DNA of 64,000 nucleotides from Pecten maximus (lineage: Eukaryota), in contig NC_047018.1 of assembly GCF_902652985.1 (NCBI RefSeq), positions 11,904,001 to 11,968,000 on the forward strand, in the 5' to 3' direction. Every line of letters begins with the position of its first letter. The stretch's first letter is position 1. Shown piece after piece: positions 9,301-62,392 of the stretch. The notes under the pieces were generated by a model, which made no database searches, was not told the DNA's origin, and was given only the letters and a program-made list of their open reading frames with translations. Position numbers and translations under genes: made by a program.

Positions 9301-12300
9301 TTTCAAGAAATAGTGATAACACACCTTAACTATCAAAATCTAAGATGGCCACCTGTCGGCCATTCTATTTTCCCAATCCGATTTCACAAATGAATGGGCA
9401 CAAGTTTGACAAATATCTATGGCCAGTACTTGACAACAGACTTCAGGGGATTTGAACAGCCCACCATCTGATGGTGGAGGGCTAAAAACTATGGGTCAAG
9501 AGAACCCACAGAATATTACCTGATCAAACTGGTCTCTCAAAGTTTGAACAATGGCTGTGACATTATCCATTTTTGAGAGTAGCGAATCTAGTGCTTTAGA
9601 ATCTGCTTCAGTTCTGTTCATCAATTCCATATCCACAATCTGAAATCAATACAGAGGATTGGGTATTATTTCCAAACCTAAAATAGGAAGATGGAAGTTA
9701 ATGGGAAGAGATACATTTTATAATTTTGTTTAAACTGAGTGTATCACAAGTGTTGATGTGATACATTACATAGTTTATACATAAACTTATTTATTTGGAT
9801 ACAAGAATATCAAACTCCATTGAAATAGTGCATAAGCTCATGATACACAGAAAAGCATATATACCCCATCGTCTTTACAAAGTTGAGGATACTTCCCCTG
9901 TCTCAATATACTATATCAATGTTTAAGATTATTTCAGGCCTTTTGTTTCTCTCTAAACATATGTTGAAACTGGAATTTTCATTTGGGATCCCTACATGGA
10001 TGATGCAGTATGAACATAAATTCATTTTAACTAAATGCTTGCAATATGAAAGAAAATCTCCAGATCAAATGGTGATAGCTGAAGAGAACACATACCATCT
10101 GGTGGACCATGTTATAAACTTGAGTCTCCATCTTCCCAGTGAACTCTTCACTGTTTCCCCCTCCTTCTCTGCCACCAGAGGATGGAGTAGGTCCACTCAG
10201 TACAAAGTCAGGATCACTGCTCTTCTGCGTGGTCATCTTAAGGAAACTTGTAGCATTCTCCATAAACTTTGTCTAAAAGAATACATTCGGAAAAATATAG
10301 TCAATAACATCAATTCTAAGAATAATTTATTTATACTTTATACTTAATACTGTTCAATCGGTATTAAGCGACCGCTCAAGGGAAGTTGAAAAATAGTCTC
10401 TTAATGGTGAGTGGTCTCTGAGATATTAAAGACTATTATAAGCTTTTCATTCATTTTATAAAATGGCAATAATAATGACCAATATATATATATATACATT
10501 TTATATATATATAAAATAAACTGTTCATTTTAACCAATAGAATTGTAAACGTCTGGAAAAAAAAAAAAAAAAAAAAACCCTGAAAAATGACAGAATTGTT
10601 GGAACGTCTGTTCACTACCTCTGACACAAAACAAAGAACCCATAAGCAAAAATATCATGACTCTAGGACCTAGAGTCTTGGATAGTAATAGGTCATTTAA
10701 AGGTTTTAAAGAATTTAACCTGACCTTTGTGACCTTGAATATGGGTCAAGGTAATTTCGTTTTGCAAACTTTGGTAAGACTCATCTGGAGAATCTATCAG
10801 CCAATATCATGACTCTTGGCTAGTAAGAAAAACTTATTCAAATGGAAAAATTGATGGTGCTCCATGGCATAAGCTCACTTGGACCTTTTGGACATGTGAG
10901 CAAAAAAGTTTCTTTGTACTTGAGTGTTATCAAGGCAAAAATGGGAATGAAAGGCATTTTGGAGACATCTGATCAATTATAAGAGGGTTAATGTTATCAC
11001 ATAAAAAAATGTGTGGTGGCTGGTCGCATAAAGAAAGGGTCATTTAATAGAGGTAAAATCTATAACAAAACTTCCCAGGGAAATTGAAATGGTCACTTAG
11101 AATGGAGGATCACCTAATAGAGATAGTCATTTGGACAGATATGACTATATTGAGATTGAGTATCGTATATTAAATGCAAAAACTATTACAGCAGACCATC
11201 TTAAGTTAAGCAATATTTTTTGCCAAAAAAATCCAACATTATGTTTTACCTGTCTGTGTGAGACTTCCTGCTGTAGAATGTCTATCTTGCTCCACAAAGA
11301 ACTATTTACAAAAGCCAAGGTCTGGGTCATAGCATTAAATTTCTGAAATAGAAAATCCATCATTTTTTTACTTATGTTAGCACTTAATATAATATAATTC
11401 TTAATGGTTCTTTATTTTGATATTTTATGTTCTTTTTTCCTCTTAATAACCTTCCCAACTGCCATGCTGTGTTGACAGAACATAAGTGTATTTTAAACTT
11501 AAAGGGTAAGGAAAAATATACAAATGAACATTTGAAACAGCCCATTGAGGATCTTCTGATTTTATTTGAAATTGTTAAGTTTTTCTCCATCAATAATAAA
11601 TATTCTTACACTCAGTATGTCTTCTTCAAAATCTCTGTTTCTGTTGGGGGAATCTCCGGGTGAAGTGGTAGGTGCTACCTTACTCACCTAAATAGAAAAT
11701 AGAAATTGTTTATTGTGACCTTAACCATAATAATGTTAATTAATGGGAAAGAGACATCAAAGTTATTCAATTAAATGCTGAAGAGATTAATAGAAAGAGA
11801 GGAAATTAACTCAAAGAGAATATTATCATATGGTGTTAGACTTGATCCAACACTTACCGATTCCATCAATGTTTTAAGCTCTGTTTCTGTTTGTTTCTGA
11901 AAGTCCAGCAAATCATTAACAGTGGCCTGCATTGATTTAACATTCACTCCCAGCTTTGCTGCAGTCTAGCAAAATATAAAAGAGAAAATAGTTTACCAAA
12001 AATATTTGATTCACAATCCACTACATTTGTTGAAAGTTTAAACAATATGTAATAACATGCCAATCCTGTACAAGATATATATATTGGGAGCAACCCACAC
12101 CATAAGTTGATTATATTTGTGAAAGCGTTATCCATATTATTATTTTTTTTCTTCAAAATATCATTATGATAAATCTTTTTTCAAAGCTTGAGACAAAATG
12201 TCATGCAGAGCAGAAAGAGCTTACAGATACTACTACAGGTTTACAGATACTAATACAGGAACTTTTACTGGTGAGAATCCACAACTTACAGATACTACTA

Positions 12301-15300
12301 CAGGAACTTTTACTGGTGAGAATCCACAACTTACAGATACTACTACAGGAACATTTACTGGTGAGAATCAATAACTTACAGATACTACTACAGGAACGCT
12401 TACTGGTGAGAATCAATAACTTACAGATACTGCTACAGGAACGTTTACTGGTGAGAATCAATAACTTACAGATACTACTACAGGAACATTTACTGGTGAG
12501 AATCAATAACTTACAGATACTACTACAGGAACTTTTACTGGTGAGAATCAATAACTTACAGATACTACTACAGGAACTTTTACTGGTGAGAATCAATAAC
12601 TTACAGATACTGCTACAGGAACGCTTACTGGTGAGAATCAATAACTTACAGATACTACTACAGGAACGCTTACTGGTGAGAATCAATAACTTACAGATAC
12701 TACTACAGGAACATTTACTGGTGAGAATCAATAACTTACAGATACTACTACAGGAACTTTTACTGGTGAGAATCCACAACTTACAGATACTACTACAGAA
12801 ACTTTTACTGGTGAGAATCAATAACTTACAGATACTACTACAGGAACGTTTACTGGTGAGAATCCACAACTTACAGATACTACTACAGGAACATTTACTG
12901 GTGAGAATCAATAACTTACAGATACTACTACAGGAACGCTTACTGGTGAGAATCAATAACTTACAGATACTGCTACAGGAACGTTTACTGGTGAGAATCA
13001 ATAACTTACAGATACTACTACAGGAACATTTACTGGTGAGAATCAATAACTTACAGATACTACTACAGGAACGTTTACTGGTGAGAATCAATAACTTACA
13101 GATACTACTACAGGAACTTTTACTGGTGAGAATCAATAACTTACAGATACTACTACAGGAACTTTTACTGGTGAGAATCAATAACTTACAGATACTGCTA
13201 CAGGAACGCTTACTGGTGAGAATCAATAACTTACAGATACTACTACAGGAACGCTTACTGGTGAGAATCAATAACTTACAGATACTACTACAGGAACATT
13301 TACTGGTGAGAATCAATAACTTACAGATACTACTACAGGAACTTTTACTGGTGAGAATCCACAACTTACAGATACTACTACAGAAACTTTTACTGGTGAG
13401 AATCCACAACTTACAGATACTACTACAGGTTTACAAATACTACTACAGGAACGTTTACTGGTGAGAATCAATAACTTACAGATACTACTACAGGAACGTT
13501 TACTGGTGAGAATCAATAACTTACAGATACTACTACAGGAACATTTACTGGTGAGAATCAATAACTTACAGATACTACTACAGGAACTTTTACTGGTGAG
13601 AATCAATAACTTACAGATACTACTACAGGAACGTTTACTGGTGAGAATCAATAACTTACAGATACTACTACAGGAACTTTTACTGGTGAGAATCAATAAC
13701 TTACAGATACTGCTACAGGAATGTTTACTGGTGAGAATCCACAACTTACAGATACTGCTACAGGTTTACAGATTATACTAATACAGGAACTTTTACTGGT
13801 GAGAATCCACAACTTACAGATACTACTACAGGAACGTTTACTGGTGAGAATCAATAACTTACAGATACTACTACAGGAACGTTTACTGGTGAGAATCAAT
13901 AACTTACAGATACTACTACAGGAACTTTTACTGGTGAGAATCAATAACTTACAGATACTACTACAGGAACGCTTACTGGTGAGAATCAATAACTTACAGA
14001 TACTGCTACAGGAACGTTTAATGGTGAGAATCAATAACTTACAGATACTACTACAGGAACTTTTACTGGTGAGAATCAATAACTTACAGATACTACTACA
14101 GGAACGTTTACTGGTGAGAATCCACAACTTACAGATACTACTACAGGAACTTTTACTGGTGAGAATCCACAACTTACAGGTACTACTACAGGAACATTTA
14201 CTTGTGAGAATCAATAACTTACAGATACTGCTACAGGAACTTTTACTGGTGAGAATCAATAACTTACAGATACTACTACAGGAACTTTTACTGGTGAGAA
14301 TCAATAACTTACAGATACTGCTACAGGAACGTTTACTGGTGAGAATCAATAACTTACAGATACTACTACAGGAACTTTTACTGGTGAGAATCAATAACTT
14401 ACAGATACTACTACAGGAACGTTTACTGGTGAGAACCCACAACTTACAGATACTACTACAGGAACTTTTACTGGTGAGAATCCACAACTTACAGATACTG
14501 CTACAGGAACTTTTACTGGTGAGAATCAATAACTTACAGATACTACTACAGGAACGTTTACTGGTGAGAATCAATAACTTACAGATACTGCTACAGGAAC
14601 GTTTACTGGTGAGAATCAATAACTTACAGATACTACTACAGGAACTTTTACTGGTGAGAATCAATAACTTACAGATACTACTACAGGAACGTTTACTGGT
14701 GAGAATCCACAACTTACAGATACTACTACAGGAACGCTTACTGGTGAGAATCAATAACTTACAGATACTACTACAGGAACGTTTACTGGTGAGAATCAAT
14801 AACTTACAGATACTACTACAGGAACGTTTACTGGTGAGAATCAATAACTTACAGATACTACTACAGGAACGTTTACTGGTGAGAATCAATAACTTACAGA
14901 TACTACTACAGGAACGTTTACTGGTGAGAATCAATAACTTACAGATACTACTACAGGAACGCTTACTGGTGAGAATCAATAACTTACAGATACTGCTACA
15001 GGAACGTTTACTGGTGAGAATCAATAACTTACAGATACTACTACAGGAACTTTTACTGGTGAGAATCAATAACTTACAGATACTACTACAGGAACTTTCA
15101 TTGCTATCTGCTTTATTTCCGGGGCTGCTTTCAGTCCATCTTGTAAGGATTCTGTTGTCATGGACAATTGGTGGATCTAATAATAAAAAACAAACATTTT
15201 ATACATTAGTGTCATTGTTTTTTGTGTGTAATTGTTGTTGGTATTTAGTGTCATTGTGTTTTATTTGTATAATTATTGTTGGTGTTTATGTGAACTGTGA

Positions 15301-17430
15301 TGTTACAGTCAGTACATATTGTTGATTACCTTATTGGTTATGTTTGTCAGCCTCTGGTTCATACGTGTGGTTTCAGTAACACCTCCAGCCTTGATCCCCT
15401 GGATTGTTTGGTTAACAGTCTGAACTTTGTTCCTTAGATCTTGATAATCTCCCAAACCATTTTGGTTTCTTGATTCAACTAAAAATTTATTTGACAAGTT
15501 TAATTTAAATACACTAGTTGCATCAGTTCATTGTAATCAAAGTAAACATATCAATTTGTAGTCATAATATCTTGTAACATATTTGCGAAAATGAGTTGCT
15601 ATTATGTAACAAAAGCATAGTATATCTGCCAACATCGGGTCACTTCCTTTCATTAAAGGTGATGCTATTGAGAGATAAGGTTAATATTGGGATGTTATCA
15701 TGAAGACCACAAATGAAAGCCGATATATTTCATAAATATCTATAGTAAACACTGGTGGTTGTTGGTTACATATTGGCAGTACCTAGTACTAGTATTTATA
15801 CACATGGACATGGCAAAGTCTTGCAAAATCTTTATACACTATAAGGAAAGTTCAGTGATGTGTAAATGTATTATATATATATAGTCAGGTGAGTGTGTCC
15901 TTTTCAATATTTAATCTTTTTAAACATTTTTGGGGGAATAAAACAGATATCTGATTAGAATGATGATATTAAGCTTAACATTATTAACTGATATTCTAAC
16001 TTCATAGTTACCTTTACCGATGTATCTATTTTAGTACAGACCTGTTTATTGTATCAATTTATCATCTCTCAAAAACATCTTTTCATATCCACAACTTTAT
16101 TGAACACTAATTAGTATGCTCTGGTACAGTATTAATGTAACAGGAGAGGAGAAAATGTAGCGGCCAGACCGGGGTTCGAACCCGGGACCTCCGAACACTA
16201 GCCGGATGCTCTACCAATTGAGCTACCTGATCACTGATGATCGACCCAGTCCAGTCCCGCTACACACCTCCCTCCTTTTTTTCAAGTCTTCGCCCTCGAA
16301 GACACAGGAGACCCTTATACCACCACCGTGGGTATTTTAGTTGGGCGCCAATTTTGTAACAGGAGAGGAGAAAATGTAGCGGCCAGACCGGGGTTCGAAC
16401 CCGGGACCTCCGAACACTAGCCGGATGCTCTACCAATTGAGCTACCTGGTCACCGATGATCGACCCAGTCCAGTCCCGCTACATTAAAACATCAATATAT
16501 TTCCTTTATATAACGGTAAGTTTTCATGATGTACAGCATTACTTTAAGAAGTGAAACTGAATTTCATTAGTCACGAGTGTACTTTACGTAGTTGATTTCA
16601 ATACCCGAAGACATTTTGTCTCTCTCTCATTTCATTGAGGTCCCGTTTCATTAGTCTTTATTAAATACCTGAGGATATTTTGTCTCTCATTTCATCAAGG
16701 TCCCGTTTCATTTGAAAGTGCATCCACAACAGAGCCACACATGCTAGTAGGCAAGTGCCAACCAGGAAGATGCCGAAAACGGTTATACATGAGCATCCTG
16801 CTGAGCCATGTCCTTTACTGTTAAAAAGCATATGGAAATTCATTTAAGGAGAAACCACGATCTATACAGTACAGTAATACTCAGTACAGTCAACAATGAC
16901 CATCTACCCAAGCTTAAACAATCGGCAGGCAGGCCTCTATTTGTTAAAATTTCTCATTTCGGAAACAAAAGTAATTCATCATTCAGTCATAAATGCTTTC
17001 AGACTGGTTACTTATACGTGTTAATATAGGTCATTTTCGATAACATATATACGCACTAAACAGACTATCAATATGTATTCATATAGATTACTGATGATAC
17101 GGATCAGCGGATATGCTTTCATTTTTAGTGGAATGAATCCAATAATTACGCCATTCACTTATATTTACTGATTGTATATGAAGAAGCGCTATTTAAACAC
17201 TTAATATAACCGGTTCATCACAAAACTTACTTCCGCATGAAAGATTTTTGAGCCGAAAGACTAAACTCGTCTATCTCGGACGACTCGCTGTCAGAACGGA
17301 GGAGCTCGTGGCCACTTTTAGATTTCCGTCGTGATTTGCCGTTACCAACTAAAGCATCGAGTTCTCGACGCTTTTTCATCCTTTTGGATGGTTTGAATTC
17401 AACATTAATTTTACTTTGTTGATCCAGCAT
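132..17430 (-). CDS. EFCAB14: EF-hand calcium-binding domain-containing protein 14-like (type II membrane protein, coiled coil, two C-terminal EF-hands); 13 coding exons
   Basis: Exons with GT/AG ends and consistent phases: 17430 (or ATG 17379)-17231, 16817-16669, 15478-15330, 15176-15078, 11965-11858, 11687-11610, 11342-11250, 10272-10096, 9639-9520, 8479-8378, 7962-7806, 4234-4031, 1772-1668, plus terminal exon 364-132 (14 segments counting the terminal exon). N-terminus MKKRRELDALVG...HELLRSDSESSEIDEF resembles vertebrate EFCAB14 (MKKRKELNALIG...RLLRTEPPDSDSES, recalled). TM segment VFGIFLVGTCLLACVALLWM, many N-x-S/T sequons after it, EF-hand loops DKDGNELVSRED and DKNDDNLYSLDE. Confidence 0.9.
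1417..1635 (-). mobile_element. tRNA-derived SINE with V-domain-like core
   Basis: Head with A box GGTGGCCGAGTGGTT and B box GAGTTCGAAAC; core GGTTTTTCTCCGGGTACTCCGGCTTTCCTCCACC; (CAAAT)n tail; 10-bp TSD ACATTGTTGA at 1407-1416 and 1636-1645. Confidence 0.85.
2338..2696. repeat. ~24-bp minisatellite
   Basis: GTAAGACATCTCTGACCTTGATAG variants, ~15 copies. Confidence 0.95.
3273..3970. repeat. 16-bp minisatellite
   Basis: AAGGTGTTAGGTYTAT, ~40 copies. Confidence 0.95.
4305..7330. repeat. 15/17-bp minisatellite (~3 kb)
   Basis: GTATAGTGTAGAGAGTT variants; source of the spurious YNSLHYTTL ORFs. Confidence 0.97.
8075..8390. repeat. 18-bp minisatellite containing the splice donor of exon 8479-8378
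   Basis: Minus-strand unit CAGATACAG|GTGAGYGGT, ~17 copies. Confidence 0.95.
8929..9488 (+). mobile_element. Degenerate HINE-like element related to the 155-bp-array family
   Basis: ACAAGAG head, decayed CAAAATCTAAGATGGCCACCTGTCGGCCAT units, 3' AGCCCACCATCTGATGGTGGAGGGCTAAAAA. Confidence 0.6.
12220..15098. repeat. 45-bp minisatellite containing the splice donor of exon 15176-15078
   Basis: Minus-strand unit TAAAAGTTCCTGTAGTAGTATCT|GTAAGTTATTGATTCTCACCAG, ~63 copies. Confidence 0.97.
16136..16483 (-). mobile_element. TRIM (non-autonomous mini LTR retrotransposon) with tRNA-like sequence in each LTR (Helenus-type)
   Basis: Two 129-bp TG...CA direct repeats (16136-16264, 16355-16483; 2 mismatches). 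PBS TGGCGCCCAAC follows the 5' LTR; PPT AAAAAAAGGAGGGAGG precedes the 3' LTR; 4-bp TSD TTAA; cloverleaf with A and B boxes inside each LTR. Confidence 0.88.
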
Positions 17431-35891: not shown

Positions 35892-38800
35892 CTATGGGGC
35901 GCCGTTTTACTATTTATTCCCATTTGGTGATATCACCCATTCGTATAGGTGATATCACTCATTCGAATAGGTGATATCACTTATAAAATTCTTAAGTGAT
36001 ATCACCTATTCGAATGAGTGATATCACCTATTCGTTTCATTAAGTGATATCACCTATTCGAATAGGTGATATCACTTATAAAATTTGGAAAACTGTATGC
36101 TCCCCAATTCCATCATGTGTAACATGCCATCTACTGTACCATTATACTTATTTGGGAGCAGTCGTTTGTATTGTTTTTAAATCGATATCACTTATTCGAA
36201 TAGGTGATATCACTTATGAAATTTTATAAGTGATATCACCTATTCGAATTGGTGATATTCGAATGAGTGATATCACCTATTCGAATTGGTGATATCACCT
36301 ATTCGTTTCAATAAGTGATATTACCTATTCGAATGAGTGATATCACCTATTCGAATGGGTGATATCACTTAATGAAACGAATAGGTGATATCACTCATTC
36401 GAATAGGTGATATCACTTAAAAATCTTCTTAAGTGATATCACCTATTCGAATAGGAGATATCACTCATTTGAATAGGTGATATCATATCAATATTGCCAT
36501 ATTGACGGCTTGCTGTAGTCAACTGTTCACAACAACACTGTACTGAACTTTATAGTTTGCACTATGGCGGACACTTCACAAGTAGTTAGCGATGCTCATA
36601 ATGTCTTATATAGTTCCAGCAACTGAGAGCGATATCGACTCCAAGCTTGATCGAATTACGTCACTCATTTCTGATATGACTGTCCGTATATCTGATATAG
36701 ATGTACAAGTTAAGAAAATTGATAACGTCCAGCAAACATTGTCATCTTTAACTAATAAAGTTAATAAACTTGAGCATGAACTTGAATGTGAGAGTGAAGA
36801 ACTCTGAGTTTGAGAAGGCCATTCGCGATATAACTGTAAGCACTCGTGAATTTGAGCAAAGTGCACAGGCCCTTGGAGACATGTTTGATACTATTAAGAC
36901 ACAGGTTGATGTTAACAAGGCGTCATTGAACACACTCGAGGAATCTACATCCGATATCTCGGTTATTCGTAAGGAGTTAGACTCCCTGAAGAAGGAGAAG
37001 GATGAGATGAGCTCCCTTGTTCTTGATCTACAATGTAGATCGATGAAAAATAATTTGGTTTTTCACGGTCTTCAGGGTGAAAGTAAAGATGAGGACACTG
37101 AGAACAAACTCAGGGACTTTTTACATTTCGAGTTAGGCATTGATTACCGTATCGAAATTGGCAATGTTCACCGTTTTGGAAAGTTTGTGTCCGGTAAGCC
37201 GAGGCCAATAGTTGCTCGCTTTATTTACCATGAGGACCTCGCGCATGTGCTGCAGTTATCCGGAAAGCTCCGTGGAAAGCCATTCGGCATCAACGAGCAG
37301 TTTCCTGCTGTAATCGAGGCGAAAAGGCGGCTGCTGTATCCCGTTAGGAAGCAAGCGAGAGCTAACAATCTTCAGGCTAAAATGGTTCGGGATAAGTTAT
37401 ATATCGAGGGTGAACTTTACGTTCCGGGGGATCGGGTAGACTGTACGAGTGACAAGGCGTCAGCCTCTGCAGCGTCTCCGCGCAACACCAGGTGGGACAT
37501 TCTACGCCCGTCACACGCAGCGCTAAGAGGAGACGTCGTTTCACGTCAACCCCGCCTAATGCAGCCAACAGGACTGAGTCGTCTCATCTGTAGGGGTGTC
37601 AGGGTGTTATCCGTCCAGTGAAAGTAACTTTATGGAATGTTAATCGTGCTTTAGAACGCAAATTAGCCGACCCTGATTTCGTTGACCGTATTTCCGGTTC
37701 TGATTTAATTGTCCTATCGGAATGCTGGGTCAGTCAAGACAGTGCCTTAAACCGTATTCTTCTCCGTGGTGACTACACGATTTTGTCTTATCCTCGTCAA
37801 AAGGGTAAAGGTGGAGGTCTGGTTTTATTGTTTAATAAGAAGTTTGACATTTATGTTGTAAAGTTTGAAGTAGACACTCTACTGTGGGTTAAAATTAAGC
37901 AATTTGGTGCCGAAGATATTTATATCTGCTTCTCTTATATTCCACCTGTAAATAATGTATATTACACTCTGTATGATGTTGATGTCTTCGATATTATTCA
38001 GAATGATGTGGGCTATTACTCACAGCTTGGTACTGTTATCATTGCCGGTGATCTGAATAGTAGGATTGGTAATTCAGTTGATTACATAGAGTCTGATTCC
38101 ATACCGAGGTCAATTTGTAATACGCTTGCAAATAACTTTGTATATAACAACGATACTGTTATGCCTAATCGTGAATCTGATGATGGCGTTGTTAATAATT
38201 TCGGGCGTAAACTGTTACAACTGTGTAAAAGTACTGGTCTTCGGGTATGTAATGGTAGATCACCTGGTGAAAACACGGGTAAATTTACTTTTTATAATCA
38301 TTTGGGGTCAAGCGTAATCGATTATGTCCTTATACATAAAGATTTCTTTAATATGATCACTGAATTCAATGTGTGTGATTTTAATGTATGGTCTGGCCAT
38401 TCGCCAATTTGTTTTAATTTAAATGTGTTATCAAATTCGCATGAAGCACATGTAAGTATTGATATTCATATAAATAACGTTGATACTAACTTATCACCAA
38501 CTTTTTATAAATGGAATGTTGATGAAGAAGTTCAAATGAAGAGTAATTTAGATGATAACATCCATTTACTACATAATATTGTTAATGATATGCAGTCCTC
38601 TACTGTCTCTGTAGATCATGGCATCGATATCTTTTCTTCAGTTTTAAATGAAATAGTCAGCCCCTGCTGCCAATCATCTCCTAAGAACCCGTCTGAGAGT
38701 AAACCAAAACATCGTGCACATAAACCCTGGTTTGACGATAAATGTAAACGCTTATACAGATTGTATCGACGTAGCTTATTTTCTTTTAATTCTGATAGAA

Positions 38801-41615
38801 CCCCTTTAAACATGTTGTCCCTTGTTGAAGCCAAACGTACGTATAAACGTTATGAAAGAAGAGTTAAACGTAAGTATTTGAGATCAGAAGGGGACCGTCT
38901 AAGCTTGTTACGTAAAAAAAATTCGAAACTTTTTTATCAATATTTTAAGAAAAAGTCCAACTGTCCAACAAACCACTTAACTCTTGGGGACTTTTTTGAT
39001 CATTTCAAAGCTGTTAGTAGTGATGATGTTGTTTCCGATAATCCAGATATTTCAGATTTTGACAATTCAGAGATTTATGTTGATTTCAGACTCTACTATA
39101 ACTGATAATGAAGTTATGAATGTTTTAAAAAGTGCCAAATTGGGTAAAACTCCTGGGATTGATAATATTCTTAATGACTATTTTGTGAAATATAAGGAGT
39201 CATTTGCTCCAATTTTATCCAAACTTTTTAATGTATTTTTTGAAGCTGGTGTTTTCCCTTCAATATGGTCAAAGGGTATAATTTTTCCTTCGTTCAAAAA
39301 GGGCGATGCCTACGATACAAACAATTATAGAGGAATAACTCTAGTAAGCTGTTTATCTAAATTATTTACTAGTGTTTTAAACAATAGATTGTTGGATTGG
39401 TCTAGGGAGAATAACATCGTCTCTGATGCCCAATTTGGTTTTAAACCTGGTTTTGGAACCAATGATGCTATTTTTGCTTTACATGGTATAATTAAGAAAA
39501 TGCTTTCAAACAATCGTAAACTTTATTGCTGTTTTGTTGATTATCGTAAGGCTTTTGATAGCGTGAATAGAAATACATTGTTTTTGAAACTTTTCCAGAG
39601 TGGAATCAGAGGGAAATTATTAAATGTTCTAAAGTCTTTATATAAAGGTCTGAAATCATGTGTTAGATTTAAGTCTGAATTGTCTGATTTTTTCTCTTGT
39701 TCCCGAGGTTTGATGCAAGGGGAGGGGTTACTCCCTTTCTTTACTCTATGTATGTTAATGATTTCGAAAATGAACTAATTAATTCCTCCTGTGACGCTTT
39801 GTTTTTAAGAGATGTTTCACTTTTTCTTCTTATGTATGCAGATGACACTGTCCTTTTCTCAGAAACTGCTTCTGGCTTACAAAAATGTTAGACTCCTTAA
39901 AACAATATAGTGACAATTGGCAATTAATAGTCAATACTGATAGAACAAAAATTGTTGTATTTCGTAATAGGGGTAGATTACGAGTTGTCAACATTTTTTA
40001 CTTTAATGGCAATGAAATAGAGATTGTTGATCGTTTTAACTACCTAGGTATAGTATTTAACTCTAATGGTAAGTTCACAAAAACTCAAGGTGTTATTGCA
40101 GAACAAGGCCGTAAATGTATGTATAATGTGTTGAACATTTGTAAGAATTTATCTCTTAATGTAGAATCTAAATTGAACGTTTTTGATGTTTACGTCTCCT
40201 CTATTCTCAATTATGGTTGCGAAACATGGGGTTTCCATGTTGCAGACAAAGTAGAAAAGGTTCATGTTGATTTTTTGAGAAAGATCCTTGATGTTAAGAC
40301 AAGTACGCCTTCCTTCATGATATATTCGGAATTAGGACGTTTGCCGTTGCATATCGTCAGGAAATGTCGAATAATAAAATATTGGCTGAAATTGATCAAA
40401 TGTGAGAATATTGTTCTTAAGTCGGTTTATGAAGAGATGGAGGATTGTAATCACAGAAATTGTAATTGGCGTTGCCAAGTTAAAAAATTATTATTGTCTT
40501 CTGGTTTCGGTAGTGTCTGGTTAACTCATTATGTTGATAATGAAAAGGTATTTTTACATTGCTTTAAGCAGAGTTTGATTGATGCTTTTATTCAAGCAAG
40601 AAATGAATTTATTGAAAGATCTTCTAAATGTTATCTGTATAAATATATTGTTGACACCTTCACACTGCAATTCTGTCTAACAAAGTCTATTCCTGATCCG
40701 TATCGTAAACTTATTTCGAAATCAAGACTTTCATCGCATAAGCTTTATATAGAAGAAGGCCGGTATCGTAATATTCCAAGGTCAAATAGGTTATGTCGTT
40801 ATTGCAACCAGAACCAAGTAGAGGACGAATTCCATTTCATCCTTATTTGCCCACTATATGTTGATATTCGAAAAAGATTCATTAAAAAATATTATTGGAA
40901 TCACCCGTCTTCTTTTAAACTTGTCCAATTGCTTTCTGTTCACAATAAAAAAGAGTTATGTAATCTTGGAAAATATTTACAATCAAGCTGGTTACTGGAA
41001 AATATTTACAATCAAGCTGGTTACTACGGTCGAGATTCCAACCTTTAGTATAGATCAATATCGTATTGTACTGTTTATCTCCAGCTATACCTATTTTTTG
41101 TTCATACCCTAACTATTCATCTAAATTATGTACACTTTGTATTTAGTGTTGAATTAACGATGTTAGTTACTTATCTCTATTTATATCTATTTATATATAT
41201 TGTTTGTTCATAATCTAATTATTCTCACAAAGTATATATTTGCATTTGAAAAATCCTAGATACTTATATTAGTTATACCTATTGTTTGGTAACTACTATC
41301 TATCTACTCTTATAAACTGTATTATTTACTTTTTATTAATGACTTAAGGTACTCGTCTCCAGTTATGTTTATTGTTTTGTCCACCCCCTGACTACTCTGA
41401 CAAGTTGTGCTTTTGTTGTTAAAATCAATGTTTGCGGATGTTTTTCACCAGTTACGCCTACTGTTTTGTTCATCCTCTATAACAATTAGTTACGTATTGT
41501 ATATATGTGTATGTTGATGCTTCTATGTTATACTTATGAGCCGTAAGGCTTCAAGTTGAATAAACTATACTATACTATACCAAATGGGAATAAATAGTAA
41601 AACGGCGCCCCATAA
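35892..41615. mobile_element. Non-autonomous TIR DNA element with internal palindromic array, split by a LINE insertion
   Basis: TIR TATGGGGCGCCGTTTTACTATTTATTCCCATTTGGT (35893-35928) is the inverse of 41579-41614; TTAA duplicated at 35888-35891 and 41616-41619; internal GTGATATCAC/CTATTCGAATAG repeats at 35927-36490. Confidence 0.8.
36490..41580 (+). mobile_element. Near full-length RTE-X-like LINE, degenerate (ORF1; ORF2 APE endonuclease + RT + C-terminal Cys/His motif)
   Basis: ORF1 pieces 36592-37621 (coiled coil, RSMKNNLVFHGL, RPIVARF); EN (LWNV, LSECW, GDLNSR, SVIDY) 37618-39105; RT (PGIDNI, NYRGITL, QFGFK, FVDYRKAFDSV, YADD) 38984-39891; CRYCNQNQVEDEFHFILIC in 39885-41048; several frameshifts; (CTATA)n tail. 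Confidence 0.9.
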
Positions 41616-41899: not shown

Positions 41900-44045
41900 A
41901 TTGAACCGTTTTTGACCATTTCTCTAGAAGGTCAAATACTCTGGATGATTGCTTGGTTCCACAATCATGTTATAAAGATTCGAATGTGGTTTATACGAAA
42001 TATTCAAGAATTATACGGAAGAGCCACGAGGGAAATGACTAATTCCAAGTCCTTGAAATTCTGCATTTTACTGATACAGCTGTCGTCTGGATAAGGGCAG
42101 ATACCTCCACATCGGACATGACGCATATACCGTCATTGTCGGATTTTTTGACGTCCGATAGCAATTCAACAGTCTTAAATGCGTATTACACGCGTAGATA
42201 CCGATACTTCTTATCGCATGGTCCCTCGGAAAACTTCAGATTTATTCTCATCTGACAGTCCGACTGTCCTCAGATATGGTGATGTCTGTTTTGATTGATG
42301 TGGCAGTGAGAATAAAACAATATTTTAGATCAACTATCAATGGCAATTGTCATTTCTTATTACATGCATCTGTCTAATATCGAAAACAAACACTGTAGTT
42401 ACCTGTGACAGATGTTAAAGTATCTGTCTGTAGTTACCTGTGACTGATGATAAACTATCTGTCTGTAGTTACCTGTGACTGATGATAAACTATCTGATCT
42501 GTAGTTACCTGTGACTGATGTTTAACTATCTGGTCTGTAGTTACCTGTGACTGTTGTTAAACTGGCTGTCTGTAGTTACCTGTGACTGTTGTTAAACAAT
42601 CTGGTCTGTAGTTACCTGTGACTGATGTTAAACTGGCTGTCTGTAGTTACCTGTGACTGATGTTAAACTATCTGTCTGTAGTTACCATGTGACTGATGTT
42701 TAACTATCTGATCTGTAGTTACCTGTGACTGATGTTTAACTATCTTGTCTGTAGTTACCTGTGACTGATGTTATACTATCTGTCTGTAGTTACCTGTGGC
42801 TGAGGTTAAACTGTCTGTCTGTAGTTACCTGTGACTGATGTTAAACTATCTGGTCTGTAGTTACCTGTGACTGATGTTAAACTATCTGTCTGTAGTTACC
42901 TGTGACTGATGTTAACTATCTGATCTGTAGTTACCTGTGACTGATGTTAAACTATCTTGTCTGTAGTTACCTGTGACTGATGTTAAACTATCTGGTCTGT
43001 AGTTACCTGTGACTGTTGTTAAACTATCTGGTCTGTAGTTACCTGTGACTGATGTTAAACTATCTGATCTGTAGTTACCTGTGACTGATGTTAAACTATC
43101 TGTCTGTAGTTACCTGTGACTGATGTTAAACTATCTGATCTGTAGTTACCTGTGGCTGTTGTTAAACTATCTGATCTGTAGTTACCTGTGAATGGTGTTA
43201 AACTTGTCCTTATAAATTTCACTGAGACATAATTATTTCCAGTGACAAGTTATTCTGTTACATTTTTGACTCCCCGTTTTTCCTAGTTTCTTGTTGCCAA
43301 TGGAGTTGCGGCCTTGTGCACGTCTCCTGTTCTATAATCCAATTCTAAATATATCACCGCTTAATTCCTGCCAAAAGACACTTTTGTTGATTTTTTGTCA
43401 TTAGCTTCGTTGAATTTGATGTGATCTATTGACATTTTTTTTATTGCAATGGTTTTTGTGTTACAAAAAGCAAAAATACTCCTTCCAACACAAAGATCGA
43501 CATCTTCACATTCATGTCCACGGTTGTCAGATCCGTGTTGGTTAGAATATCAGACAGCTGCCCTAAAATATAATTACAGAATACAAAATACATGTAAATG
43601 GATTACTTTAAGAGTTTAGAACCTAGATTAGTTATCAATAAATCTTTCCGCGTTAAGCACTAGAAGCGGAATTTCTCTTTGACTACACATATAAAAATGT
43701 TATAGATCAGGTTCTTTAACCATTTACACACACACGATTACAGATTTATAATTATATATCATGCGCTGACCATAATTCCTTTGGACAGGTTTGATGAACG
43801 TGATTTTCTACGAGCGGCAGAAATAATGTTCTGAAGGATAAACCCGTTGATAAGTGTAGCGTACTGTAGTTCAATCAGCCATGGGTATCCGCTAATGGTA
43901 CATTCCTTATTTGAATATATCGCGACTGTGGCTCTAGATATGACACTGTTGAAAATGCGTCTTCAATGTTTCAGGATATATGGATTTTTTGGAGGTGTGT
44001 TAGGATGCCATTTTAATGCCGTGTACGTCTATATGGCACTGTAGA
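41900..44045 (-). pseudogene. Possible decayed multi-exon gene (TRIM/B-box-NHL-like fragments)
   Basis: Exon-like blocks bounded by AG/GT (~44035-43770, 43562-43187, ~42285-41900) with stop-interrupted peptides such as DNRGHECEDVDLC, DNDGICVMSDVEV and RVFDLLEKWSKTV; no intact frame. Confidence 0.3.
42393..43190. repeat. 38/39-bp minisatellite containing a CAG|GTAACT donor-like junction
   Basis: CTGTAGTTACCTGTGACTGATGTTAAACTATCTG(G/A)T, ~20 copies. Confidence 0.95.
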
Positions 44046-58200: not shown

Positions 58201-61200
58201 ATGGCATCCAACAAAGCTACTACGAATGTTGCCAAACGGAGAAGAGAGAATAGCAGTAGGGAAAGGCTAAGATGTCCCATTTGTATGAAAGAAATAGGTG
58301 AACTCGATCTGTCACTCTCCTGCAATGTATGCGAGATGTGGTTCTGTCAACAGTGCTCTGACCTTGACACCGGAGTATTGAAGGTAATCAAAGAGAATGA
58401 TAGTTTGACATGGACATGCAGAATTTTAGCAATTGAAAAAAGTCTGGATGCTATAAAACATCAAACAAGTGAGCGGTTGTCAAGCTTGAAAGCATTGATC
58501 AAGTCATTGAGTCCAGAGTCGAGTACAAGACAAATACAATCAAGGACGGTCTTCTGACTGATATTAAAAGTCAAGTAGAAGAACAAGTATTAAGCTGCTT
58601 CAAGAAATGTCAGGACCAAAAGAACCGGGAACTCAATCTGATGGTTTACAATCTACCTGAATCAGAACTAGAAGGAGGCCAGGCCAGGAATATAGAGGGC
58701 AGGAAAGAACTAGACAGAGTAACAGAACTCCTTGTAATAAGGAATCTAAGACCAAAACACATTATAAGAATTGGTAAACCAGGAGCCAACAAAACACGTC
58801 CAGTCAAACTTGTATTTGAGCAAAAAGAGGAAAGACGCCGACTTATGGAAAAGGCACCAAATATTAGAACACTGCAAGATGAACACCTGAGAAGAGTTGT
58901 AGTTGCCAGAGATTACACACCAAAGCAGAGGAAAGAAAGTAAAGATTTGCGAGATGAACTGCAAAGAAAAAGATAATGGAGATTACTGTTTTATTATAGG
59001 TGGGAATATAATCCGAGCCATTGGTCCAGTTCCCAAACCAAAAGGATGGAAATCTCCAAGCCTACCTGTAACGCCTGTGCATTCAATCACTCCATCTAGT
59101 CTAAATCAAATCAGGCCAAGAAGTACAACTGGACAGAGAACAACCAACCCAGTAAACATACCACCAAATACGCCTGCTAGTGGTCACCACAATGAAAAAA
59201 TGTCACTGGTCACACAAGGGATAGGTAGAGGATTAAGATACCAACATTCTCCAAGCAGTCTGCATATTCAAACCAACGACGTCTTCACTCAAAATACTCT
59301 ACACGACTCACATATATTCAATGACAGCGAGTTCGAAACAGAAGATACATGCGAGTCAATTGAAGGAGAAAGCGAAGAAGAACCAACACTGATATATGGA
59401 AACCAATCTGTGGTAGAGAACATGGATCGAATAGGAGAACAATAGGAAACTAGTTTTAACAGCACAGTCACTGTAGATAAAGCACACACTCACAGAGTCT
59501 TATACAGTAATGTGAATACCCTGTTAAACAAAAGGAACGAACTTTTACATGCAATTGAAGAAGCGAAACCATCAATTATATCCTTAACAGAAGTTCTTCC
59601 AAAAAACAATTCAGGTGATCTAGACCCATGTGAATTTGCCCTAGAAGGTTTTGATTTGTTTTTAAACTCCACAACGGAAGGTAGAGGAGTCTTGTTGTAC
59701 ATAAAATCAGAACTTGAGGCAACCTCATAGATATGCAATTCAATTAAATGATTTGGTGAAAAGTAAAACTAAAAAGTGCGGATAAACTCCTGATTGGCTG
59801 TATTTATAGAAGCCCCTCCAGTTCAGAAGATAACTCCAAAAGGCTACATTCTGTAATAAAAGAAGCAATCGGAAATGCAAGCCACATCATAATAATTGGC
59901 GATTTCAACTATAGGAGTATAAACTGGCAACTGGAAACAACAACAGACCCATTAAATTCACATGGCTATGGTTTCTTAGAATGCCTGAAAGACAGTTTCC
60001 TCTACCAACATGTCACTGAAAACACAATATACCGCCATGGAAATGAGCCAACACTATTTGATCTCATCATATCAAATGAGGAAGGTCTAGTTAGCAATAT
60101 TTCACACAAGCCTCCACTAGGAAAAAGTGATCATGTGGTAATTTCATTTGACCTCCAGCTGTACACTCCTAATTCAACTGAAAATCAAGAACCGAGGTAC
60201 TGTCTGTACAGGGTAACTATGACAACATGAACAGAGTACTTGCTGAGATCAATTGGGAAGCAGTACTTCACAGTAAAGGAACATGTGAATCTTGGGCTAT
60301 CTTGAAGGATAAAATTAAATAATTGATTATTACAAATATACCAGATAGTAGAGGTAAACCAAGACGAGGTACGTCCCAGTGCATGAACGGCACTACAATT
60401 GATGCTCTAAAAATGAAACGTAAATGTTGGAATAAGTACCTGAGGAACAGGAACCAAGAAACATACGAACAATACAGAGAAGCCAGAAACATCGCCACCT
60501 CGACACAAAGACAATCAAAGAAAGAATTTGAAAAAAAGATTGCCACCGACTTGAGAAAACATCCAAAAAGCTTCTGGAAGTATGTACACACCAAAACAAA
60601 ATCAAAGGTAGGAATATCTTTCTTGGAACAAACAGACGGGAACACAGCGACAGACAATAAAGAGAAAGCTGAAGTGCTGAATGAATGCTTTAGCGTCATA
60701 TTTACAGCAGAGGATCTTGATAACCTACCAACAACTCCAAATCTTGACCCAAAAGCCGCTGTCCTAGAGAATATAGAAATCGGTCCAGAAAAGGTCATCA
60801 AGAAACTAGAAAATATCAACACCACAAAATCACCGGGACCAGACGATTTACACCCTAAAGTGATCTATGAACTGAGGGCTAGTATAGGTAAGCCATTATC
60901 TATCCTTTTCAATAAGTCCATTGAAGAGGGAATTTTGCCACACGATTGGAGAGAGGCCAATGTCACTGCTATTTATAAAAAAGGGAATAAAAAACAGCCG
61001 TCCAACTACAGACCAATAAGCCCGACTAGCATTATAGTAAAGATACTTGAATCAATTATCAGAGATGAGATCATGGAATATCTTGAGACCAACAACAAAC
61101 TGTCATGCTCCCAGTATGGATTCAGAAAGGGACGATCAACAATACTCCAGTTGTTAGAAGTTCTAGACGAAATTACCAAAGTTCTGGACTCCAAAAAATG

Positions 61201-62392
61201 TATGGATATAATTTACATTGACTTCCAGAAAGCATTCGACTCAGTTCCCCATAAGCGCCTTGAATTAAACCTAAAGTCATTGGGAATAAGTGGTGCACTG
61301 TTGTCATGGATATCAGCGTTTCTTAGCAACCGTCGGTAAAGGGTCAAAGGTCAATCATCAAGCTGGACAGACGTGCGAAGCGGAGTTCCACAAGGGAGCG
61401 TACTCGGGCCGGTACTCTTTCTTATCTTCATCAACGACATTCCAAACGGTACAAGATCCACTGTCAAACTATTTGCAGATGATACGAAAGTGTACGGCCT
61501 CAGTGATTCGGAGCAAGACACAACCATCATCCAAGACGATTTAGACAAACTACAGTTGTGGTCAGACAAATGGCAGATCAAATTCAACCCCTCAAAATGT
61601 TCTAGTTTACACTTTGGCCAAAACAATAAGAAAACCAAATATAAACTGAAAGAACAGGAAATTCAAGGAAACTCTGTGGAAAAAGATCTGGGTGTTTTAT
61701 TTGATACAAAACTAAAATTCAGTGCACAAGTCGCATCCAGTGTCAAGAAAGCTAATTGCATGCTAGGCATCATCAAAAGATCATTTGAAAATTTGGATAA
61801 ATTCATGTTAACAACCCTGTTTAAATCTCTCGTAAGACCCCGACTTGAATATGCTGTCACAGTCTGGAGCCCGCAGTTAAAAAAGACATTGTAGCAATTG
61901 AGAATGTCCAAAAGAGAGCTACTAAACTGGTCAGGAATATATCTCATCTCCCTTATCCAGAAAGACTCCGTCACCTCGGGCTCCCATCACTCCAGTACAG
62001 GCGGAAAAGATACGACATGATTCAGGTATTCAGAATCCTTAATGGGATGGATGTGACTTCAGAGGATCTATTACAAATAACTGGAGAAGGCAGGACAAGA
62101 GGACACAATAAGAAATTGGCAAAACCACACACAAGGCTAAGCATCAGAAAAAAGTCATTCCCAGCCAGAGTTGTCGATGGCTGGAACAGTTTATCATCGT
62201 TAGTTGTCAATTCACCATCAATCAACTCATTTAAAAGCAACCTCAACAAGCACTGGACTAACAAGGCGATCAAGTTCCACCCATCCTGCTACGTGTACTA
62301 GTTTAACAACGACCCGCCAAAATACTCTGTATAACACCTACTACCTATACAGTCTATACATGTATATATAGATAGTGACCGTAGATACAGAT
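58201..62392 (+). mobile_element. Near full-length CR1-like LINE, degenerate, antisense within the carboxylesterase locus
   Basis: ORF1 with PHD-like CPIC...CNVCEMWFCQQC...WTC; ORF2 EN (YSNV, LTEV, GDFNY, SDH) and RT (KSPGPDDLHP, NYRPIS, DFQKAFDSVPH, SGVPQGSVLGP, FADD, EKDLGV, TRGH); multiple stops and frameshifts. Confidence 0.9.

Follow-up and report, generated by a model that had tools for sequence, protein, structure and literature searches.

The 64,000-nt window analysed here (Pecten maximus contig NC_047018.1, positions 11,904,001 to 11,968,000) carries on its minus strand an EFCAB14-like gene at 176..17379, with 14 coding exons in the window and a last exon ~1.7 kb beyond the window start. 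The 14-exon model reads through 626 amino acids without a stop and is identical to RefSeq XP_033737240 (Pecten maximus) at 625 of 626 positions; the "EF-hand" label derives from RefSeq names and from precomputed Pfam hits of relatives. This match bears out the exon structure originally read from the letters, in which exon 4 (15078..15176, 99 nt, phase 0/0, also delimited by RefSeq isoforms and RNA contigs) is followed by an acceptor at 11965, where exon 5 (11858..11965, 108 nt) begins. In RNA contigs of 4/4 runs exon 3 (15330..15478) is joined to exon 4 across an intron of 153 nt, the shortest in the gene. Intron 4 measures 3.1 kb and is filled by a minisatellite array, and an uninterrupted exon 4/exon 5 junction is found in five RefSeq isoforms as well as in the Ylistrum and Argopecten proteins.

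The array is a 45-bp minisatellite of ~63 units on the minus strand at 12221..15098 (its distal end being approximate), for which TRF gives a period of 45, 62.6 copies and 90% matches. It opens 21 nt inside exon 4 and then crosses the donor, these last 21 nt of the exon (15098-15078) forming the exon-identical part of the unit. The 62 GTAAGT hexamers, which span 15077 to 12289, comprise one authentic donor (15072..15077) and 61 pseudo-donors; spacing from donor to donor is exactly 45 nt in 59/61 cases, the exceptions being one of 68 and one of 65, and no full unit has lost its +1..+6 donor hexamer. The junction 16-mer, allowing up to 2 mismatches, has 62 downstream copies. The last two donors at its distal end are degenerate (GTAAAC at 12244 and GTAAGC at 12224), and they are followed by a unique 255-nt tail of intron 4 (11966..12220) that contains the true, T-rich acceptor (5.8 bits). 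CAG sites alternate with the donors throughout (60 CACCAG, each with 9 pyrimidines in -14..-3), the mean pairwise identity between units is 95.5%, and an in-frame TGA is present in 48/59 full units, including unit 1 (15066..15068), the other 11/59 being a TGT GGA/GGG variant. The original prediction of ~63 tandem copies of an exon end plus GTAAGT, each with a CAG acceptor-like site and most, from the first onward, with an in-frame TGA beside a TGT GGA minority, thus holds for the anatomy; its 23-nt exon-end copy stands as an exon-end copy plus donor, but the exon-identical part is 21 nt, and the 23-nt piece from a CAG to the following GT consists of those 21 nt and two further bases. The first CAG (15058-15056) and its 23-nt piece up to donor 2 lie at 15033..15058, and 57/57 such pieces open with an in-frame TAA and also shift the reading frame. 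Stop-free frames of 405-468 codons occur on both strands of the array; a protein-coding role was rejected, none of them being in the gene's frame and the RNA contigs skipping the array.

The unit is locus-specific, derived from the host gene and confined to a single genomic location. All 33 exact matches of a 35-nt unit pattern in the 918-Mb genome fall inside the array, which rules out a dispersed satellite or transposon origin, and the reversed pattern, used as a control, has 0 matches in the same 918 Mb. Since the C-terminal residues of exon 4 are the same in the Ylistrum and Argopecten proteins, the exon is taken to be the source of the unit and not the reverse: a 45-bp piece crossing the junction apparently was duplicated and then expanded. 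Slippage or unequal exchange is the probable means of expansion: the same succession of 6 unit types is found both at unit 38 and at unit 51, a length reached in 2/1000 shuffles. The CAG and the unit length of 45 = 3 x 15 are likely chance features of the piece that happened to be duplicated.

In assembled RNA, the mRNA is made with the authentic donor, the one lying furthest upstream. Exon 4 is joined directly to exon 5 at this donor in 6/6 RNA runs examined, which come from six different studies, so that exclusive use of the 15078 donor is what the assembled contigs contain; this is one half of the outcome named beforehand as counting against a splicing role for the array, the other half being a splicing efficiency independent of array length. 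The RNA was matched at the intron flanks, where splicing from a donor deep in the array would show up solely as array letters at 11965; among the matches listed, contig loose ends at 11965 have exon-4-specific letters and no array letters in 4/4 runs, and loose ends at 15078 have exon 5 letters in 4/4 runs. Neither a later-donor join nor a microexon is present in the assembled contigs of these 6 runs (of 16 containing the gene), a type of evidence from which rare forms are dropped and in which stop-bearing forms may be hidden by decay, and a later-donor join is likewise absent from the 5 RefSeq isoforms. A 75-nt contig of array sequence occurs in one run (X2) with 2 differences, one of them absent from the reference units; its depth is 2.4 and it may be an error.

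The reading that best accommodates these observations, to which we assign a probability of roughly 0.8, is that a minisatellite has come to span the exon 4/intron 4 boundary, that the first donor alone is used in assembled RNA and that the 61 pseudo-donors are likely silent, tolerated tandem duplicates. Since the local donor sequence is the same in every copy, the choice among them would be made by position, with the first donor probably closing an exon that is defined by its strong upstream acceptor, by analogy with human F7 intron 7. Should splicing slip to a later donor, extension of exon 4 to donor 2 meets the TGA at codon 186 of about 640, with at least ten introns downstream, and nonsense-mediated decay would probably eliminate the transcript; such errors would then cost a little mRNA and yield no altered protein. 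The predicted premature stop ahead of the EF-hands is thereby supported, the EF-hand-like exons being C-terminal. The array is likely harmless.

The array is a junction-spanning minisatellite of the kind described for human F7 intron 7 and for the amphioxus "mirage" minisatellites: its terminal unit spans a real boundary, the splice signal is reiterated, the unit is locus-specific and the main mRNA comes from the first donor. In the consulted portion of the report on the 37-bp VNTR of F7 intron 7 (Borensztajn et al. 2006, PMC1557585), which names LMNB2, PDGF intron 4, CBS intron 13 and 6-16 intron 2 alongside it, the first donor is shown experimentally to win, the pseudo-donors can function once the first donor has been lost, and array length is polymorphic. 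As in that case, the first scallop unit crosses the exon/intron boundary, an identical donor is reiterated in the intron and the mRNA shows the most upstream donor alone. By the same account the scallop array differs in its ~63 copies compared with 5-9 in F7 or up to ~25 in 6-16, in carrying 21 exonic bases per unit as opposed to 4 in F7, in a unit length that keeps frame and in its molluscan host; functional pseudo-donors and polymorphism are demonstrated in F7, whereas the scallop array is known from one assembly and from RNA contigs, in which it is collapsed. The amphioxus examples, as given in the parts consulted of PMC3087553 and PMC3902484, include Adh3, troponin C, the globins BflGb6/BflGb9 and PGBD5, and consist of tandem copies of an exon-intron boundary at either exon end, several per gene, with units of 10-160 bp and normal mRNA. 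Their resemblance to the scallop array extends to the invertebrate host, the minisatellite-like tandem copies of a boundary, the occurrence of several per gene, a unit size within that range and the normal mRNA; the scallop copy number is higher than the 3-6 of the amphioxus globin cases in the same sources. Titles and abstract openings, drawn mostly from outside the subscription journals, yielded no report of comparable scallop or bivalve arrays, nor of EFCAB14 splicing. Given that the arrangement is already known from the F7, CBS and amphioxus studies, the single locus has little significance alone, beyond serving as a natural experiment, on a large scale and in a non-mammal, for "first donor wins", with 61 identical competitors and one join in assembled RNA.

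The same architecture recurs elsewhere in the Pecten maximus genome, at 8/219 predicted kinase donors, 6/202 acceptors and 0/245 mid-exon points, or ~3-4% of the predicted kinase splice sites sampled, a frequency relevant to gene annotation and read mapping. The kinase donor ladders exceed background first copies about twofold (8/219 vs 25/1500, P=0.03), a small excess in a survey in which some loci are paralogues, and the acceptor ladders show no significant excess over background in two tests (P=0.55 and 0.12). Unit length is divisible by 3 in just 2/8 of the donor ladders, an in-frame stop follows the donor within 1-72 nt in all 8, and the ladder of one kinase locus (L196) reaches 44 bp x 84. 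Minisatellites make up 14-35% of five 200-kb samples. An annotation-free polarity test on 230 arrays in 1.06 Mb was null for genome-wide enrichment, with no excess of exon-like sequence ahead of the arrays that bear donors (7 vs 6 of 34) and no significant difference in GC (0.374 vs 0.362, P=0.64). This rough test missed the EFCAB14-like array, likely since a donor-like 9-mer on the other strand of its unit scores higher. At 4 bits, 25/233 array consensus units have donor motifs vs 13.0 +/- 3.5 in shuffles, about twofold, and at 3 bits the reversed-consensus control comes close (38 vs 29). A 36-bp array at 42393-43204, tried as donor-spanning, was excluded from the count because the 378 nt upstream have no open frame.

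The authentic donor has a weak -3..-1 (1.8 bits, third from the bottom among 16 donors), and this, together with the use of nearby pseudo-donors in human 6-16 and CBS, stands as a counterpoint to silent pseudo-donors. The foremost alternative, a rather unlikely one, builds on a leaky ladder that serves as an expression dial: a small fraction of transcripts would use donor 2 or 3, read the TGA and decay, with copy number or the first units tuning EFCAB14. Donor 2 matches donor 1 over the local consensus, the stop is already present in unit 1, decayed forms would be invisible in contigs, and in human 6-16 intron 2 and CBS intron 13 the next pseudo-donors of junction-spanning minisatellites are used, according to the part consulted of PMC1557585. 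On the other hand, later-donor joins number 0 in the 6 runs and in the 5 isoforms, the functional and identical pseudo-sites of F7 did not compete in the portion consulted of that report, and an in-frame stop soon after the donor is usual in the kinase ladders. Moreover, ladders at several percent of kinase junctions argue that no gene-specific purpose is needed. The locus would gain in importance if it were true that copy number alters mRNA level via decay. A still bolder form, in which slipped EFCAB14 transcripts are decayed and length-variable ladders, by their turnover at exon ends, adjust the expression of many genes and give rise to new introns genome-wide, is improbable.

Very unlikely, in turn, is the originally suggested spliceosome decoy, in which many U1 sites would have been selected to slow splicing or prevent premature cleavage. 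It could draw on the presence within 2.9 kb of 62 donor hexamers perfect at +1..+6, kept by all full units, and on the twofold excess of donor ladders over background. Yet 11/45 unit columns vary, and the invariance of the 6 donor columns is therefore within chance (P=0.17); acceptor ladders, which bind no U1, are similarly frequent, the excess of donor ladders is small, with paralogous loci among the kinases, and no excess appears in the polarity test.

The array CAG scores -1.1 bits as an acceptor, whereas 13 real acceptors from this gene range from 2.4 to 6.8, on a matrix trained on the gene itself with 1/14 training sites off by a base; by plain pyrimidine count it is comparable (9 vs 6-10). 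It has no T at -5/-6, where 72% of the gene's acceptors have one, and the A of the sole branch-like TTGAT lies ~11 nt from the AG, the usual branch-point-to-AG distance being 18-40. The GT-to-CAG pieces measure 22 or 67 nt, shorter than the shortest introns seen in this gene and among 124 predicted kinase introns (114 nt in the latter), and the coding strand of the array contains 0 AGGT and 0 AGGC. Ratchet points in long introns are juxtaposed AG|GT sites, as set out in the part consulted of PMC8605326; the scallop array resembles them in having acceptor-like and donor sites in one intron and differs in its lack of juxtaposition and its merely 3.1-kb intron. The two remaining proposals, a recursive-splicing ladder removed stepwise between donors and CAGs or a source of 23-nt microexons, thus have scarcely any likelihood despite the pyrimidine-preceded CACCAG sites alternating with donors, failing on these distances and signals and on the TAA-opening, frame-shifting pieces, with no usable acceptor by score and no inclusion in mRNA in 6 runs of contigs, where rare forms are invisible. 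A second donor-spanning minisatellite of the EFCAB14-like gene, 18 bp x 17, lies on the minus strand at 8075..8386, across the end of exon 10 at 8378, and has 7 downstream copies of its junction 16-mer.

The EFCAB14-like gene reads as 14 minus-strand exons (17379 to 176) encoding 626 stop-free residues, which agree at 625 positions with the Pecten maximus EF-hand calcium-binding domain-containing protein 14-like (RefSeq XP_033737240). Of the 3112 nt in intron 4, 2857 belong to a tandem array of 62.6 copies of a 45-bp unit; on the minus strand it extends from 15098 to about 12221, so that its first 21 nt are still part of exon 4 (15176-15078). It holds 62 GTAAGT donors (15077 to 12289, minus), spaced by exactly 45 nt in 59 of 61 intervals, and 60 CACCAG sites; the original prediction of about 63 copies of a 45-bp unit with repeated donor and CAG sites was therefore correct, as was the coding-frame TGA in most units (48 of 59 full units, including the first). 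Mean identity among units is 95.5%, with 11 of 45 columns variable, and a 35-nt pattern taken from the unit has 33 matches across the 918-Mb genome, every one inside the array.

Exon 4 is joined directly to exon 5 in all five RefSeq isoforms and in the Ylistrum and Argopecten proteins. A run search found 24 sequencing runs, 16 of which cover some of the gene, the data being assembled contigs in every case; of the six examined, X3 is on record as RNA and the others are presumed to be RNA, their contigs skipping GT-AG introns. Above the array, contigs of four of four runs (X1, X2, X4, X13) pass from exon 3 through exon 4 and exit at 15078 into exon 5. Below it, four of four runs (X1, X2, X3, X5) have, among the rows listed, 30 unaligned letters at 11965 that extend past the 21 nt common with the array into exon-4-specific sequence. 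The authentic donor at 15077 (donor 1) was thus used in all six runs, from six study codes, in agreement with sole use of this donor as far as contigs can tell, in which rare forms are dropped and stop-bearing forms have likely decayed. Run X2 also yields a 75-nt contig of depth 2.4 within the array, without a join, alongside other intronic pieces alike.

Since exon 4 ends in the same residues in the RefSeq isoforms as in the proteins of Ylistrum and Argopecten, this exon end probably predates the array and gave rise to it. Duplication of 45 bp straddling the exon 4/intron 4 junction would have been followed by expansion through slippage or unequal exchange. A run of six unit types, seen at unit 38 and again at unit 51 and equalled in only 2 of 1000 shuffles, points to growth by block duplication. 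The donor would be picked by position, next to an exon that a strong acceptor (6.4 bits, at 15176) defines, and any transcript slipping to a later donor would be removed by decay. Such a first-donor rule has been demonstrated for human F7 intron 7, where the pseudo-sites, although identical and functional, offer the first donor no competition (PMC1557585); the same paper describes first-donor use only in LMNB2 and PDGF. Amphioxus exon-intron boundary duplications of the same sort, named mirages, leave splicing undisturbed according to PMC3087553 and PMC3902484, and human splicing-associated repeats have been catalogued (PMC10078293). The scallop array is a further member of the known kind to which F7 intron 7 and the mirages belong; a literature search that covered subscription journals thinly returned no report of such arrays for scallops or EFCAB14.

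A small leak to later donors is plausible in EFCAB14-like because 6-16 and CBS also use the next pseudo-sites, as PMC1557585 relates. Extension of exon 4 to donor 2, the GTAAGT of the next unit, brings a stop at codon 186, as anticipated for use of a downstream donor. A spliceosome decoy gains little from the six donor columns, which are invariant in full units at a level within chance (P=0.17 given 11 of 45 variable columns). A recursive-splicing ladder is not supported by the array, in which no AG|GT juxtaposition occurs, the feature defining ratchet points (PMC8605326), and in which donor-to-CAG steps would be 22 or 67 nt; the shortest intron seen measures 153 nt in EFCAB14-like and, in a set of 124 predicted kinase introns, 114 nt. 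The suggested 23-nt microexons are not supported either: pyrimidine count alone places the array CAG within the range of real acceptors (9 versus 6-10), but the mean score of the 60 CACCAG sites is -1.1 bits, versus 2.4 to 6.8 for 13 real acceptors (in a matrix built from the gene's own acceptors, 1 of 14 training sites being misplaced), and TAA opens all 57 CAG-to-GT pieces, giving a stop codon in the frame continued from exon 4.

Minisatellites (12-200 bp, at least 3 copies) occupy 14-35% of five 200-kb samples of the genome. A repeat-blind exon set came from the 80 of 136 kinase matches with short open frames (249 exon hits, all in the correct orientation); purpose-built donor and acceptor matrices predicted 219 donors and 202 acceptors, some at paralogous loci. 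An array's first unit contains 14 of these 219 predicted donors, versus a 2.9% background (P=0.005), and a last unit contains 6 of the 202 predicted acceptors (P=0.55). Under a stricter criterion for such ladders (tandem copies of a splice junction), i.e. a junction 16-mer recurring at least twice, there are 8 donor ladders of 219, across 7 of 79 kinase loci (P=0.03), and 6 acceptor ladders of 202 (P=0.12), compared with none at 245 mid-exon points; of 1500 random points, 25 are first copies. A cruder, annotation-free polarity test gave no excess; donor motifs were enriched about twofold in the units of arrays. Given this high minisatellite output and small donor excess, ladders are frequent mainly because minisatellites are, the excess at donors being at most modest. 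The most far-reaching idea, that transcripts of many scallop genes leak into decay to an extent set by copy number, is very improbable. Unit length is divisible by three in 2 of 8 kinase donor ladders, so the frame-keeping 45 nt needs no special reason.

The kinase locus L196 (G000:C11:33323001-33331000) carries both a donor ladder (3856-7579 oriented to the kinase strand, 44 bp x 84, 61 GTAGG copies) and an acceptor ladder (59 bp x 17). Near the window, likely donor ladders lie at L012:1674-1790 (+, 66 bp x 11) and at L008:2521-2835 (+, 43 bp x 6), the latter after a P-loop-motif exon that presumably resembles a nucleoside monophosphate kinase start. At 42393-43204 a 36-bp x 23 array carries, on the minus strand, a site resembling a donor (CAG|GTAACT); the 378 nt upstream of it begin like an exon after an acceptor but contain no open frame, possibly a non-coding exon or chance. 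Degenerate LINE-like endonuclease/reverse transcriptase remnants, judged by eye, occupy 38000-41050 and 59450-62300 (+).

Within EFCAB14-like, RefSeq isoform X3 and RNA contigs indicate alternative 5' exon pairs (minus), 21226-21112 with about 20117-19960 (runs X2, X4) and 17379-17231 with 16817-16669 (run X1). Each pair supplies a start and a hydrophobic segment of its own, and both join exon 3 at 15478. The Pro/Thr-rich exon 12 (4031-4234, minus) is absent from RefSeq isoforms X4 and X5, and isoforms X1 and X2 differ in the acceptor of exon 13, which is displaced by 3 nt. Another donor-spanning minisatellite lies at the exon 10 end (8075-8386, minus, 18 bp x 17). Intron 2 contains two near-identical tRNA-like or SINE-like elements of roughly 190 bp each (16140-16490) and, about 65 nt in, a lone diverged copy of the exon 2 end and donor (16705-16590, minus), which resembles an early or decayed two-copy stage.
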